Virus record (IMG/VR): IMGVR_UViG_3300013947_000013
Location: 1-36,337 of that record
DNA length: 36,337 bases
Source of the DNA: a virus
Reading direction: 5' to 3' (one strand)
Position 1 is the stretch's first letter; each line of letters starts with the position of its first letter. The notes beneath the pieces were generated by a model that was given only the letters and a program-made list of their open reading frames with translations, was not told where the DNA came from and did not search any database. Of this stretch, positions 7,960-27,955 are shown one piece after another. The translations under genes were made by a program, and so were the position numbers.

Positions 7960-7969
7960 TGGCCATAAT

Positions 7970-7998
7970 TTGCATTTTCCACCAATTTATGCTATAAT
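7970..7998 (+). promoter_or_regulatory. Sigma-A type promoter, TTGCAT-17-TATAAT with TGC directly upstream of the -10
   Basis: TTGCAT 7970-7975, 17-nt spacer, TATAAT 7993-7998. Lies just after the lysis terminator. Confidence 0.65.
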
Positions 7999-8021: not shown

Positions 8022-8189
8022 ATGGTTGAAAAAAGAATAAATGATAAAGATATTATTTATAGATTAACAAGAAGAAAAGATAATATTTTAATTATTAAAT
8101 ATAATATGAGGAATAAAAGAGCATGGTTTCAAACCAATAGCATGCCAAAAAGAAAAGCTATAGATATTAACAGAGTAGTTAACCTATAG
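8022..8189 (+). CDS. Small basic protein (55 aa), autonomous moron unit
   Basis: SD GAGGGG (8011-8016), ATG 8022, TAG 8187-8189. Own promoter and own terminator. Below the track cutoff. Confidence 0.55.
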   Translation: MVEKRINDKDIIYRLTRRKDNILIIKYNMRNKRAWFQTNSMPKRKAIDINRVVNL

Positions 8190-9180: not shown

Positions 9181-9200
9181 GTAGCATACTGGTAGCATAC
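9181..9200 (+). repeat. Left arm-type repeats: 2 x GTAGCATAC, 11-bp phasing
   Basis: Copies at 9181-9189 and 9192-9200, in the same orientation as the right-hand set. Confidence 0.6.
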
Positions 9201-9239
9201 AAATCGTTTGTAATTCCTTTAAATTATGCACTTGCTATA

Positions 9240-9287
9240 TGGCTGTTAACCGATAGGTCGTAGGTTCGAGCCCTACATTGGCCGCCA
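9240..9287 (+). other. attP core: 3' half of a tRNA-Asn(GUU) gene (anticodon loop to CCA)
   Basis: CTGTTAA loop (GTT at 9245-9247), CCGAT, variable AGGTC, T-arm GTAGG-TTCGAGC-CCTAC, acceptor ATTGGCC, discriminator G, CCA. There is no matching 5' acceptor or D-arm upstream, so this is a fragment and not a gene. Confidence 0.75.
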
Positions 9288-9300
9288 TTTAGATAATTAA

Positions 9301-9334
9301 CAAACCCTTTAAATATAAGGGTTTGTTTTATTTT
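9301..9334 (+). terminator. Intrinsic terminator downstream of the tRNA fragment
   Basis: CAAACCCTT / AAGGGTTTG stem, 7-nt loop, then TTTTATTTT. Confidence 0.65.
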
Positions 9335-9389
9335 ACTTGTTTTTGATATATTTTTGTAATTCTTGTGGAATTGTCTGATTATAACAACG

Positions 9390-9420
9390 GTAGCATACAA
9401 GTAGCATACAAGTAGCATAC
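9390..9420 (+). repeat. Right arm-type repeats: 3 x GTAGCATAC, 11-bp phasing
   Basis: Copies at 9390-9398, 9401-9409 and 9412-9420. Directly adjacent to the integrase 3' end. Confidence 0.6.
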
Positions 9421-9435
9421 ACAAACTTTTAATTC

Positions 9436-10509
9436 CTAATATTTAATTTTTTCAATTTCTTTTTTTAACTCTTCTATAGTTTTGTGAATATAAACATTGT
9501 TGGTAACATCATTTGATAAACTATGGCCTAATAATCTTTTAATAATTACATCAGGTATTCCTACGGAAGAACACTCTGTTGCAAAAGTATGTCTTGTGTC
9601 GTAAGCAGTATGTTTCATTTTGTTTTCTTCCATAAATTGTTCAAATCTTTTTTTATATGTGTCATATGTCATTTTTTTATTGGTACTTTCATTTATAATT
9701 AAATATTTTTGTCCTTTGTTTTTATTATATATTTTTTCAATTAATGGTTTAATTTTTGAATGGATTGGTATTATTCTGTTTCTACCTGCTTCTGTTTTTT
9801 CTCCACCAATCATATAATTATCTTCTATAAATACATTTTTTTGCTCTATATTGAGCAATTCACTTGGCCGTAGTCCTGTAAATAGGTAAATTACAATTAG
9901 TTCTGCTATGGGACTAAAAATGGCCTTTTCTTTGATTATTTCGATTTCTGTTTTGCTAAATGGAATATGCTTGTTTGATTTTTCCTTTTTTCCTACTTCT
10001 AATTCGCATATTGCTTTATTGATATTTAGTTCCAATTCATCAATTGAATAGTCAATTATTCTTTGAAATGTATTTTTTATGTATCCTCTACCAGTATGTT
10101 TTAATCCTGAATTATTTATAATATTTTGAACATCTTTCTTTTTGAGTTCCAGTATTTTTTGATTTTTAAGTTTTATTAAATGATTGTTGTAAACAGAAAG
10201 CATATTCTTATAATTACTTTTTGACATTTTATTATTTAAGTACATTTCTTTTAATTTTGGTTCTAATTTATCGAATACTTCTCCTAATGTTATATTTTTA
10301 TTTTCTATGTTAAATGGTACATTGTTATATTCTAGTAGCTTTTGATAGGCTTTGTTATAAGTCTCTTCATATGCTATATATTTTTTTATTTGTTTTCCCT
10401 CATTGTCCCAGCCTATTGTTTTTAAAGCACCCCACGGTTTCCTTCTATTTTCACCTAAATAGACTATTGATCCAAATCCATTTGGTAATTTCATTTTTTT
10501 TCTTTTCAT
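9436..10509 (-). CDS. int: Tyrosine integrase
   Basis: TGLRPSEL (Arg I), RHTFAT, LLGHS, and the Tyr in NNVYIH. Adjacent to attP. Confidence 0.9.
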   Translation of the reverse strand: MKRKKMKLPNGFGSIVYLGENRRKPWGALKTIGWDNEGKQIKKYIAYEETYNKAYQKLLEYNNVPFNIENKNITLGEVFDKLEPKLKEMYLNNKMSKSNYKNMLSVYNNHLIKLKNQKILELKKKDVQNIINNSGLKHTGRGYIKNTFQRIIDYSIDELELNINKAICELEVGKKEKSNKHIPFSKTEIEIIKEKAIFSPIAELIVIYLFTGLRPSELLNIEQKNVFIEDNYMIGGEKTEAGRNRIIPIHSKIKPLIEKIYNKNKGQKYLIINESTNKKMTYDTYKKRFEQFMEENKMKHTAYDTRHTFATECSSVGIPDVIIKRLLGHSLSNDVTNNVYIHKTIEELKKEIEKIKY

Positions 10510-10525
10510 TTTTTATCACTCCTTA

Positions 10526-10554
10526 TTGCATTTTGTTTATTTATTTGCTATAAT
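10526..10554 (+). promoter_or_regulatory. Sigma-A type promoter, TTGCAT-17-TATAAT with TGC directly upstream of the -10, pointing away from int
   Basis: TTGCAT 10526-10531, 17-nt spacer, TATAAT 10549-10554. Very similar to the promoter at 7970. Confidence 0.6.
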
Positions 10555-10560
10555 TGGAGT

Positions 10561-10655
10561 ATGTAAAAAAGAATTGTCTTTGGTTGGACTAATTTAATTT
10601 TACATACACTTTTTATAGTGTTTGAGTCGGTGTTGGTAGCACTGGCTCTTTTTTT
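10561..10655 (+). ncRNA. Candidate ~95-nt structured small RNA (three hairpins, the last an intrinsic terminator)
   Basis: Hairpin 1: ATGTAAAA / TTTTACAT (10561-10568 / 10598-10605). Hairpin 2: ACACT / AGTGT (10606-10621). Hairpin 3: GAGTCGGTG / CACTGGCTC (10624-10648) plus a T7 run (10649-10655). There is no ORF (ATG is followed directly by TAA). Confidence 0.45.
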
Positions 10656-10836
10656 ATTTATTTGAATTTTGATATTTTATATAATAATAAAATCCTATAC
10701 ATAATAAAATGATATTTAATATTAATAACCAATTTTCTTTAAATATAAAATGATCATTGTTTACTATTAATGCTCCTATTAAAAAAATATATGCTAGTAT
10801 AATAATTCCATTTAAAATATCTTTTAATTTTTCCAT
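10654..10836 (-). CDS. Small two-TM membrane protein co-transcribed with the repressor
   Basis: 60 aa with two hydrophobic helices. Starts 6 nt after the repressor stop. Confidence 0.6.
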   Translation of the reverse strand: MEKLKDILNGIIILAYIFLIGALIVNNDHFIFKENWLLILNIILLCIGFYYYIKYQNSNK

Positions 10837-10842
10837 AATCTA

Positions 10843-11643
10843 TCAACTTTCTATTTCTGATATATATTTTTCATATAAAGGTGAATTTGTAAAATTATTC
10901 CATTCTTTTAAATATTCTTTATAATTATTATCTAATATTTGTTTTAGCATATTTGAATTATTATTAATAAAATCATTAATATTGTCAAGTTCATTTTCTT
11001 TTAAAAGCCTTCCTTTTTTTATTAAGTTTAAGGAAATTAATGTATCATATAATTTTTTTATATTTGAGTAACTATTTAAATCAAAATCCATTTCTGCTTC
11101 TGTATTAGGTTGATATTCAAAATCTAATTTTAATAGTGAATATATATTTTCAGATACTTTATTTAAAATGTTTTCTTGATTTTTTAAATCATTACTAAGT
11201 TCTTTCCATTCTTTTTTTGAAATGTTTAACATAGTCTTTTTTTTAGGATTGTTTTTAATCCAATTTTGTATATGTTGTTTAATATTATTATAGGTTAACT
11301 CTTTATTATCATCAGTTTTAATATTTAAAAATATATCTTCTACAATTTCTATTGGTAAATTAAATTCATTACTTATTTTATTCAAAGTATTTTCGACTTC
11401 ACTACCAAAAGTGAACTCTTTTTTTGATTCTTCAATAGATGCTATTTTTCTTTTATTTAATAGATCATCTATTGATATATTTAAAGAATTGCATATTCTA
11501 ATAATATTTTCTACATTTGAATTATCTATACCTCTTTTTAATATACTATCTACGGTGGTATAAGGAATATTAATTTTAATAGAAAATTGTCTTACTGAAC
11601 CATACTTTTCGATTATCATTTCTTTTATTTTTTCTTCTAACAT
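10843..11643 (-). CDS. XRE-family HTH repressor (CI-like), 266 aa
   Basis: HTH in GSVRQFSIKINIPYTTVDSILKRG. SD AGGAGG lies 7 nt before ATG 11643. The longer track ORF (to 11754) would run through the promoter/operator region. Confidence 0.75.
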   Translation of the reverse strand: MLEEKIKEMIIEKYGSVRQFSIKINIPYTTVDSILKRGIDNSNVENIIRICNSLNISIDDLLNKRKIASIEESKKEFTFGSEVENTLNKISNEFNLPIEIVEDIFLNIKTDDNKELTYNNIKQHIQNWIKNNPKKKTMLNISKKEWKELSNDLKNQENILNKVSENIYSLLKLDFEYQPNTEAEMDFDLNSYSNIKKLYDTLISLNLIKKGRLLKENELDNINDFINNNSNMLKQILDNNYKEYLKEWNNFTNSPLYEKYISEIES

Positions 11644-11664: not shown

Positions 11665-11693
11665 ATTATAATATATAAAATACGAAAAATCAA
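11665..11693 (-). promoter_or_regulatory. Leftward repressor promoter, TTGATT-17-TATAAT
   Basis: On the minus strand: TTGATT (11693-11688), 17-nt spacer, TATAAT (11670-11665). Overlapped by operator O1. Confidence 0.5.
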
Positions 11694-11809
11694 ATATTTT
11701 TTTTAAAATACTAAAAAGCATATTGACAATATATGAAAAATCGTATATAATCATATTGTAGTCAGAAAATTAAATATTTTTTTTAAAGACTACATACGAA
11801 AAATCGTAT
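11680..11809. promoter_or_regulatory. Three 16-bp operators, consensus ATACGA-AAAA-TCGTAT
   Basis: O1 11680-11695 ATACGAAAAATCAAAT. O2 11731-11746 ATATGAAAAATCGTAT. O3 11794-11809 ATACGAAAAATCGTAT (perfect palindrome). Confidence 0.65.
11723..11751 (+). promoter_or_regulatory. Rightward early promoter, consensus TTGACA-17-TATAAT
   Basis: TTGACA 11723-11728, TATAAT 11746-11751. O2 lies in the spacer. Confidence 0.7.
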
Positions 11810-11829: not shown

Positions 11830-12036
11830 ATGGTTCAATTAAAAGATGTTTTAAAAGAAGCAAATATAACTCAATTAGATATTGCTAACGAATTAGGAAT
11901 ACGATCTTTAAGTACAGTAAATCAAAAGTTGAATAATAAAAGTGATTTTACTGTAAAAGAAGCAAAAATTTTAATAGAACTTATAAGAAAAAAGACTTCT
12001 AAAAAATATCGTGTTGAAGAATTATTTCAAGAGTAA
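11830..12036 (+). CDS. Cro-like HTH regulator
   Basis: SD AGGAGGTG. 68 aa. HTH in ITQLDIANELGIRSLSTVNQKLN. Divergent from the repressor. Confidence 0.65.
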   Translation: MVQLKDVLKEANITQLDIANELGIRSLSTVNQKLNNKSDFTVKEAKILIELIRKKTSKKYRVEELFQE

Positions 12037-12069
12037 AAATCCAACCAAAGACAAAAAAAGGAGAAGTGT

Positions 12070-12294
12070 ATGGAAAAATTAAAAGAAATGAAAACTATTC
12101 CTATACCAATAGTTGCTGACTTACTAGGTAAGACTCAACAATATGTAAGAATAGGATTGCAGCAACAACGACTACCAATCGGAAGCGCTGTAAAAATGTC
12201 ATCAGAGTGGACTTATCATATATCATATGAGTTACTAAAAAATTATATTGGGGAAGAAAGGATAGTAAAATATGAAAACGAAAGTCAATTATAA
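12070..12294 (+). CDS. Small HTH DNA-binding protein (excisionase- or regulator-like)
   Basis: SD AAGGAG (12058-12063). IVADLLGKTQQYVRIGLQQQRLP resembles MerR/Xis-type HTH proteins. Confidence 0.45.
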   Translation: MEKLKEMKTIPIPIVADLLGKTQQYVRIGLQQQRLPIGSAVKMSSEWTYHISYELLKNYIGEERIVKYENESQL

Positions 12295-12511: not shown

Positions 12512-12572
12512 TTTGTATCAATTATTTACTATTAAAGTATAACACTTTTTATAGTAAAAATCAAATGGAAAA

Positions 12573-21478: not shown

Positions 21479-21833
21479 GTATACAATGATATTGTGATAA
21501 TATATAGTTCACATATTATACCTCACACTACCTATTAGTAGGTAGTATACTGATAATATATAAAAAGCGCGGGTTGAAAGTTAAGGTTAATTTGCTTTTA
21601 ATATCACTATAAAAATCAAAGTACAAGATTAGTGGTTACTTTCAAGAGAGTTAGGTTGAGTATGGCCAACAAAACACCTATAAATACCTTTATATTATTA
21701 GTATAGTACTTACTAATACGAGATTACATACCTCCTTTACTCTATTAAATGATATTTATCTTTTTCATTTAGTATGTAATCAGAATATGGATACACTAGT
21801 GTCTTTTTATTATGTAAAAAAGGGTTGATTAGT

Positions 21834-21965
21834 ATGAACTATAAAAAGTGTATGAAGAATAATACTTGCAAAACTTGTAGTGATTATTTGTTTTGTAAAG
21901 AAGAAACACCAAAAAGGGGTAAAAAGAAAAACAAGAAGGCAAACTTGTATAAAAATAGGAAGTGA
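21834..21965 (+). CDS. Possible 43-aa Cys-rich basic micro-protein
   Basis: CMKNNTCKTCSDYLFC followed by a K-rich tail. The SD is weak. Its stop overlaps the terS start region. Confidence 0.3.
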   Translation: MNYKKCMKNNTCKTCSDYLFCKEETPKRGKKKNKKANLYKNRK

Positions 21966-27880: not shown

Positions 27881-27955
27881 TGCCATATGGTGAAGTGGTA
27901 ACACATTGCACTTTGACTGCAACATTCCCTAGTTCGAATCTAGGTATGGCAACCA
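27881..27955 (+). tRNA. tRNA-Gln (anticodon UUG), 75 nt with encoded CCA
   Basis: Acceptor TGCCATA / TATGGCA (U1:A72). D-arm GTG-AAGTGGTAA-CAC. Anticodon arm TTGCA-CTTTGAC-TGCAA. Variable loop CATTC. T-arm CCTAG-TTCGAAT-CTAGG. Then A-CCA. Confidence 0.9.

Follow-up and report, generated by a model that had tools for sequence, protein, structure and literature searches.

A candidate trans-acting small RNA encoded beside a phage integrase gene, with a predicted pairing site ahead of a Xis/Cox-like early gene

The window analysed here, positions 1 to 36,337 of IMG/VR virus record IMGVR_UViG_3300013947_000013 (36,337 nucleotides, nt), is a very AT-rich temperate phage genome. Directly upstream of its tyrosine integrase gene, int, and divergent from it, lies a short cassette of promoter, hairpins and terminator that converges on the end of the repressor operon. 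We propose, as a probable function, that this cassette is the gene of a trans-acting antisense RNA of about 95 nt, the tip of which pairs at the ribosome-binding-site (RBS) region of a Xis/Cox-like early gene and thereby blocks its translation. The elements concerned are the following.

9436-10509, minus strand: tyrosine integrase gene int, Shine-Dalgarno sequence (SD) at 10517-10522; the conserved divergent neighbour of the small RNA (sRNA) gene
10526-10531, plus strand: -35 box TTGCAT, read directly from the sequence
10546-10554, plus strand: extended -10 element TGcTATAAT, in which TGC (10546-10548) ends the 17-nt spacer and TATAAT occupies 10549-10554
10559-10655, plus strand: predicted sRNA of about 95 nt, with a start placed at about 10560 ± 2 and an end within the T-run
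10559-10607, plus strand: hairpin 1, with an apical loop on an upper stem, which an internal loop separates from a basal stem of 10 bp
10574-10588, plus strand: predicted target-recognition segment TTGTCTTTGGTTGGA, spanning the apical loop together with the 5′ half of the upper stem and some of its 3′ half
10608-10619, plus strand: hairpin 2, small and optional, present in the minimum-free-energy structure and missing from the centroid
10624-10655, plus strand: intrinsic terminator, a stem-loop (10624-10648) with two G·U pairs followed by T7 (10649-10655)
12040-12054, plus strand: putative target site TCCAACCAAAGACAA in the early rightward transcript, a perfect 15-nt complement of 10574-10588
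12060-12072, plus strand: SD GGAG (12060-12063) and ATG (12070) of the target gene
12070-12294, plus strand: target gene, encoding a 74-aa winged-helix protein of Xis/Cox/PrtN-like fold (phrog_6058, no annotated function)

Direct reading of the sequence confirmed, to the nucleotide, the positions that a first-pass annotation of the window had given for promoter, stem-loop and T-run. The same annotation had called the promoter near-consensus. This holds for the extended -10 element and not for the -35 box, since TTGCAT agrees with TTGACA at three of six positions only, which is also why a consensus scanner did not list this promoter. Across 13 class-A sequences from related loci (described below), the TT of the -35 box and the TA-AAT of the -10 box are invariant and the spacing is 17 nt throughout; the -35 boxes of relatives read TTTACA, TTGCAA or TTTACT. 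A second promoter of the type TTGCAT-17-TGCTATAAT is located at 7969-7998, upstream of a 55-aa open reading frame (ORF; 8022-8189). The two had been described as nearly identical, and they do have TTGCAT, the 17-nt spacing and TGCTATAAT in common.

RNAfold was used to examine the region 10558-10660 (103 nt). The predicted structure has a free energy of -31.5 kcal/mol (z = -5.46; 0 of 200 shuffled sequences were as stable) and contains the three hairpins that had been drawn on paper, at 10559-10607, 10608-10619 (weak) and 10624-10648. In related loci, numbered with the prefix L, hairpin 2 occurs with differing sequences (L011, L012, L092, L095, L178 and L190) or is absent (L008, L014, L016 and others). 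The terminator was detected by the scanner on the plus strand alone, as expected from its earlier description as strand-specific: read on the minus strand, the stem has two C·A mismatches and lacks a following T-run. Its T-run overlaps by 2 nt the TAA stop codon (10654-10656, minus strand) of a convergent 60-aa ORF, again as described, and no plus-strand ORF of at least 30 aa is found in 10556-10655, so the cassette is indeed free of ORFs on its own strand. Searches against Rfam returned no family match at the gathering score for the whole window, nor at E ≤ 10 for 10400-10800; the best chance matches were L20 leader (22.7 bits) and AniS (16.9 bits), both far under threshold.

Relatives of the cassette were not found by nucleotide comparison: none turned up among cultured phages when the region was compared by BLAST with 50,697 phage records, and in IMG/VR an exact search for the terminator sequence gave no match and a search with int one distant locus. 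Relatives were then traced via integrase homologs. Integrase homologs from gut-metagenome contigs (99%, 75%, 74% and 73% identity) all have a promoter-hairpin-terminator cassette directly upstream, on the strand opposite to int. What lies beyond the cassette varies among relatives (a 60-aa ORF, a 153-aa DUF3862 protein, a 75-aa and a 157-aa protein, a DUF4429 protein and others). Scanning of one-genome-per-species and metagenome collections yielded 160 additional int-relative loci, mostly from uncultured Bacilli, Mollicutes-like bacteria and Clostridia, and in many of them the cassette occupies the same place next to int, in at least two sequence classes (A and B). A covariance model built from seven sequences (R1) matches the window only at 10556-10655, with 109 bits. 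On 679 kb of loci it gave 16 matches, all at the int-upstream site except one weak match in L025.

For a closer look at the stems, base pairs were counted in a structure-guided alignment of ten class-A RNAs (A5). Standard pairs fill 95.3% of the alignment cells, compared with 75.1% in shuffles and 35-52% in slid controls, in an alignment that leans towards the structure because it was derived from the fold of each single sequence. Double changes occur in 13 of 19 stem pairs, and the observed values were reached by none of 500 shuffles. Compensatory double changes were found at 5 of the 10 pairs of the basal stem of hairpin 1, and 8 of the 9 pairs of the terminator stem show double changes. The variety of pair types and the outcome of the slid controls speak for a genuine covariation signal. 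Within the class-A alignment, the stems hold 15 G·U and one A·C. Together with the promoter and the T-run, this excess of G·U argues for a functional RNA on the plus strand, divergent from int. The related phages thus bear out what the first-pass annotation had put forward for this site, a self-contained small-RNA gene on the plus strand: the cassette is conserved beside int at a fixed position, its promoter is kept, its stems covary and its terminator is strand-specific.

Two relatives deviate from the usual arrangement. In L118, a distant int-relative locus (about 32% identity), the cassette promoter from -35 to -10 is repeated as an inverted copy about 20 nt downstream, which would provide a second, int-directed promoter facing the first. 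The int of Butyrivibrio phage Idris (L181), a cultured phage, is of the same family, and the phage encodes a target-protein homolog; there, the small RNA is absent and its place upstream of int (2363-2650) is taken by a short ORF with its own SD and a terminator.

The window was searched for complements of the RNA. The best non-trivial one is formed by 10574-10588, at the top of hairpin 1, with 12040-12054, which starts 3 nt past the stop codon of a cro-like gene and ends 5 nt ahead of the SD of the target gene. The loops of the relatives differ from that of the window and each is matched by a site of its own 1.2-2.9 kb downstream. The perfect complement between loop and target measures 13 nt in L008, L009 and L012, 14 nt in L011, L095 and L127, 15 nt in L027 and L102, 17 nt in L019, 19 nt in L092, 21 nt in L021 and L022 (both class B), 23 nt in L034 and 26 nt in L018. 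In all resolved cases the site is located 9-33 nt before the start codon of a homologous gene of 62-84 aa, and most class-A duplexes come within 0-3 nt of the SD. A 14-nt complement is also present in L013, where no target-gene homolog was identified downstream of the site. Complements of at least 13 nt were present in 20 of 147 int-relative loci and in 16 of 705 control windows; for complements of at least 15 nt (up to 26 nt), the numbers were 10 of 147 and 1 of 705, respectively.

Since RNAduplex energies on long AU-rich sequences were too noisy to tell cognate and non-cognate pairs apart cleanly, each RNA was compared with each leader by the length of the exact complement. The diagonal of this matrix shows 13-26 nt and the off-diagonal fields mostly 6-9 nt; the few higher off-diagonal values are probably matches between A-runs and T-runs. 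Five further lineages were fetched independently via homologs of the target protein. Their pairings extend over 14 nt (L176), 11 + 3 nt with a bulge (L178), 10 nt (L172 and L190, each) and 14 bp including one G·U wobble (L174). By inspection, the duplex of L019 also contains a G·U where that of L018 has an A-U pair. Wobbles within the intermolecular duplex fit selection on an RNA duplex and not on a DNA repeat. The pairing is composed of a near-constant part next to the SD, UUGUCU with AGACAA, which accounts for the conserved AAGAATTGTCT in the RNA, and of a variable part. The pattern suggests that the variable parts are phage-specific 'addresses'. In close relatives, the paired segment is 47-80% identical, compared with 73-83% for the adjacent coding sequence. 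For the window, the core duplex was calculated at -22.8 kcal/mol, and opening of the hairpin top costs about 9.6 kcal/mol.

Could AT-rich DNA have produced a promoter-like and a terminator-like sequence at this place by chance? In favour of this, the scanner found hardly more promoter-like sites in the region than expected (56 against 46); for terminator-like sites, it gave 5 in 6 kb where 1.1 were expected. Conservation of the cassette, covariation of its stems, the z-score of its fold and the co-variation with the target all contradict this explanation, to which we attach next to no weight.

The leaders of the target genes have some further features. In relatives, most target sites are preceded, at a distance of 5-15 nt, by a small hairpin of 5-6 bp that overlaps or comes after the cro-like stop codon. 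The leader hairpin of L095 (GTACGAAAATCGTAC) resembles the palindrome of the repressor operators.

Profile searches with the 74-aa target protein found no significant family in PDB sequences, Pfam or NCBIfam; Pfam had no match at E ≤ 0.1 and NCBIfam only an unrelated weak family. Sub-threshold matches to DUF3173 and to HTH_17 were seen for 10 and 9 of 42 family members, respectively. A profile search of a large protein database retrieved 2607 relatives, and among the 120 that were listed none has an informative name or Pfam domain. Structure was more informative. The AlphaFold (AF2) model, with a predicted local distance difference test score (pLDDT) of 93, is a winged helix of H-H-E-E-H-H topology. 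In BFVD, the model matches phage proteins that bear the names PrtN, P2 Cox or excisionase (E from 5e-5), and it also matches Xis of mycobacteriophage Pukovnik (4j2n; probability 0.94, template modelling score 0.61). The depositors of phage Idris entered its homolog as putative Xis, and this homolog reaches 25.5 bits with HTH_17 (PF12728), for which the cut-off is 27; the window protein itself is not above threshold with the excisionase and HTH_17 profiles (PF12728 of Pfam, TIGR01764). According to PHROGs, no other excisionase is named among the early genes. On these grounds we call the target protein Xis/Cox-like, and a role as excisionase is plausible.

A translation block of this excisionase-like early gene is the most likely outcome of the pairing. 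The RNA would be transcribed rightward from its own promoter and would end at its own terminator. Presumably it is made in the lysogen, because its promoter is free of any overlapping operator. Hairpin 1 would use its top to pair with the early lytic transcript, at a point between the cro-like gene and the target RBS, and the duplex next to the SD might either block ribosome loading or trigger cleavage. In this way, stray transcripts from the repressed lytic promoter would give no Xis/Cox-like protein, and both during lysogeny and its establishment Int could act without the directionality or lytic-commitment factor. Upon induction, the burst of early mRNA would outnumber the RNA and lift the block, so that the threshold might be overcome only when the lytic promoter is fully derepressed.

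Several observations weigh against this proposal. Transcription, ends and abundance of the RNA are all predicted, and the direction of its effect, repression or activation, is read solely from the position of the duplex, which in the window stops 5 nt short of the SD. L016, L186 and L187 have the cassette as well as the winged-helix gene, yet show no complementarity between them. The construction of alignment A5 favours the structure. The target has no Pfam or NCBIfam match above threshold, and its fold class also includes plain regulators. Finally, target pairing is not the sole reason for the linkage of such cassettes to int, because the Lacto-int cassettes discussed below share the architecture without a target of this kind.

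The same site could also be used in the opposite sense, with the RNA activating the target gene or stabilising the early transcript. The duplex lies upstream of the SD and not over it in the window and in class-B relatives, and small hairpins stand just upstream of many target sites, which would fit activation. The leader in the window, on the other hand, is without significant structure of its own (z = -0.42) and thus offers no inhibitory structure to relieve; most class-A duplexes run up to the SD; and a constitutive-looking promoter combined with activation of a lytic or excision gene would destabilise lysogeny. We therefore regard activation as improbable and keep repression of the Xis/Cox-like gene as the preferred explanation.

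The sRNA gene and the target gene are located on opposite sides of the repressor gene and are separated by 1.5 kb. The genes in this interval are the following.

10654-10836, minus strand: 60-aa ORF of a two-helix membrane protein, convergent with the sRNA; a non-conserved neighbour outside the system
10843-11643, minus strand: ORF of a helix-turn-helix repressor-like protein
11830-12036, plus strand: cro-like gene, the first gene of the divergent early operon

Between the repressor and cro-like genes (11680-11809) there are three copies of an operator-like palindrome, ATA(C/T)GAAAAATC(G/A)(T/A)AT. One of these copies overlaps the -10 box of a perfect consensus promoter (TTGACA at 11723, TATAAT at 11751). 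The paired sequence of the RNA was considered as a repressor operator and rejected; the operators are ATACGAAAAATCGTAT-like, are present in three copies and differ from it.

The 60-aa ORF is a small membrane protein gene whose 3′ end touches that of the convergent RNA, an arrangement in which the protein might be the toxin and the RNA the antitoxin of a type I toxin-antitoxin pair. The overlap amounts to 2 nt only, there is no extended complementarity between RNA and ORF, and relatives with the RNA have unrelated genes where the ORF would be. Given this lack of conservation, we rejected the toxin-antitoxin role, which appears highly improbable.

On the other side of the cassette, the start of the -35 box is 16 nt from the ATG of int and the box itself is 3 nt from the int SD. 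Any int mRNA must for this reason carry the full complement of the sRNA. The first-pass annotation had suggested that the RNA is antisense to read-through from the repressor operon into int. Geometrically this is unavoidable; that int is the regulated target has no specific support, and the covariation points to a site 1.5 kb away. Its statement that no convincing leftward int promoter is visible in 10524-10650 agrees with the scanner, which reported no promoter-like site on the minus strand there, and neither the scan nor inspection of the relatives revealed a conserved leftward int promoter inside the sRNA gene. A leftward near-consensus promoter-like site (TTGACA-17-AATAAT, 11 of 12 positions), located at 10960-10988 on the minus strand within the 3′ portion of the repressor ORF, might allow the 60-aa ORF and int to be transcribed without recourse to the repressor promoter.

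An RNA acting only in cis, as antisense to this read-through, might lower or process int mRNA via RNase III or via transcriptional interference. The closeness of the -35 box to the int SD fits such a function, as do the lack of any leftward promoter or terminator between the 60-aa ORF and int, the presence of the cassette beside int in all relatives and beside the unrelated serine integrase of TP901-1, and the Lacto-int cassettes that have no trans target. It would leave unexplained why the tip is complementary over 10-26 nt to one particular gene, 1.2-2.9 kb away, in about 20 differing lineages, as a cis-antisense RNA would need no match between loop and target. As the only function we consider it unlikely; as a possible second function next to control of the Xis/Cox-like gene, a cis-antisense effect on int seems likely.

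Downstream of int, at 9181-9420, there is an attP-like region. It contains a 3′ fragment of a tRNA ending in CCA (about 9242-9287; 97% identity to tRNA-Asn over 36 nt) and a plus-strand terminator (9299-9327), which are flanked by five copies of GTAGCATAC (at 9181, 9192, 9390, 9401 and 9412), probably arm-type integrase sites. A gene for tRNA-Gln (UUG) is found at 27881-27955 in the late region of the phage. The position of attP and of the arm-type repeats, on the other side of int, bears on another explanation, according to which the hairpins are a DNA-level element (a recombination inverted repeat) or a structure in the 5′ untranslated region (5′-UTR) of int. The cassette does lie upstream of int, and Watson-Crick hairpins form on either strand. 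The ratio of 15 G·U to one A·C in the stems, the promoter and T-run on the plus strand only, the G·U wobble within the intermolecular duplex and the position of attP and the arm-type repeats across int are nevertheless all at odds with it, and we judge it very unlikely.

A candidate for a second pairing site of the RNA was also seen in the window.

21838-21854, plus strand: 17-nt perfect complement of sRNA positions 10603-10619 (base of hairpin 1 and hairpin 2)

It covers codons 2-7 of a small Cys-rich ORF (ATG at 21834) just before terS, and no equivalent was seen in relatives. A 14-nt direct copy occurs at 12542-12555, 18 nt upstream of a gene for a 472-aa exonuclease/Sak4-like protein, and position 21811 was noted along with these sites. 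The complement of 10603-10619 may represent a second target or a shared protein-binding motif.

Taken as a whole, the pairing of loop and target suggests that excision or induction of the prophage is under an RNA lock of a kind not described before. The direction of recombination, by Int alone or by Int with Xis, is controlled via promoters, proteolysis and processing of RNA in cis. If our proposal is true, a trans-acting RNA that gates a Xis/Cox-like gene would be a new layer of directionality control and would give the first functional lead for integrase-adjacent RNA motifs of Gram-positive phages. Integrase and excision do not come up in a review of phage small RNAs from 2025 (PMC12197685). 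The approximately 20 natural loop-target pairs form a ready-made series of compensatory mutations that can be used although the gut hosts are uncultured. Should the addresses define specificity, they would be relevant to prophage stability, to cross-immunity in the gut and, as small orthogonal regulators, to engineering.

The known element closest in location is the Lacto-int RNA motif, which was found upstream of integrases in lactococcal and streptococcal phages and whose function was left unknown (Weinberg et al., 2010; PMC2864571). The authors drew it on the int-sense strand, regarded it as a possible cis-regulatory or DNA element and listed no Rfam accession (PMC2864571), and both a recombination inverted repeat and a structure in the int 5′-UTR were proposed (PMC2864571, supplement). 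Lacto-int and the sRNA have in common their position directly upstream of phage integrase genes in Firmicutes phages or prophages, a long covarying first hairpin and a second hairpin that is ambiguous or weak. On the strand opposite to int, the Lacto-int sites of TP901-1, Tuc2009, MM1, EJ-1 and P9 share the layout of the sRNA gene, with an extended -10 element (TGnTAAAAT), a hairpin at the transcript start and a T-run terminator, and the bases of the hairpin stems are similar (GGTATAGTAAA.../...TTTACTATAC in Lacto-int, GTATGTAAAA.../...TTTTACATAC in the sRNA). In TP901-1 (L180, 1508-1607) and in L182-L185, Lacto-int looks like the reverse complement of an int-divergent sRNA cassette, and the record of MM1 annotates a plus-strand terminator at the Lacto-int site. 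Within 6.5 kb of TP901-1, the best match of model R1 is the Lacto-int site, with only 20 bits (E = 0.04), a score that leaves homology unproven.

There are also clear differences. The apical loop of Lacto-int is conserved (UUUAAU/UUAAAA), whereas that of the sRNA is a variable address without UUAAA. Lacto-int was placed on the int-sense strand, whereas promoter, T-run and a G·U to A·C ratio of 15:1 assign the sRNA to the opposite one. In TP901-1, Tuc2009, MM1, EJ-1 and P9, no loop complement of at least 11 nt was found at any early-gene RBS. The RNA of the window may therefore be a distant relative of Lacto-int with a different or additional mode of action, and we have not filed it as a member. 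A wider possibility, which we put forward tentatively and hold to be rather doubtful, is that integrase modules of many Firmicutes phages carry an 'address RNA' that diversifies together with its site at a Xis/Cox-like gene, that both the resident phage and an incoming one with the same address are locked, and that Lacto-int is the same device described on the wrong strand. In that event, pairs of addresses would confer an immunity-like specificity, the lock that a resident prophage puts on its own factor for excision or induction would act at the RNA level, and the targets of Lacto-int would still have to be found.

Prophage-encoded antitoxin RNAs of type I systems, such as those of phiCD630-1 in Clostridioides difficile (PMC7699646), resemble the sRNA in converging on the gene of a small membrane protein of the prophage. 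They differ in that the membrane protein gene of the window is not conserved with the RNA and overlaps it by 2 nt. In phage lambda, int and xis are controlled by the placement of the pI promoter inside xis and by sib retroregulation with its RNase III site in cis. No trans-acting RNA is known to take part in this control. If the target of the sRNA is an excisionase, the logic would be alike, since Int would act without Xis at integration and stray excision would be avoided.

With regard to the mode of action, the best comparison is c4 of phages P1 and P7 (Rfam C4 family), a phage-encoded trans-acting RNA whose loops pair near the RBS of an early operon and silence ant, a gene that threatens lysogeny (PMC12197685). 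Sequences of c4 and its target differ between related phages and define specificity, that is, heteroimmunity (PMC12197685). The sRNA shares with c4 the co-varying loops complementary to a site adjacent to an RBS, which is a shared way of working and not membership, as the sRNA has no match to the Rfam C4 family. Processing from the same transcript as its target, and pairing through two loops with two sites, are characteristic of c4. Unlike c4, the sRNA has its own promoter and terminator beside int, 1.5 kb from its target, and uses one hairpin; its target is Xis/Cox-like and not an antirepressor, and its hosts are gut bacteria of the Gram-positive type. P22 sar and lambda OOP are likewise short phage RNAs with their own promoter and terminator that repress a gene of the lysis-lysogeny switch by pairing (PMC12197685). 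Both are encoded in cis opposite their targets, whereas the target of the sRNA is on the same strand, 1.5 kb away, and the complementarity extends over 10-26 nt. By analogy, the RNA of the window would work like c4 of P1 and P7 or sar of P22 without being a member of either family.

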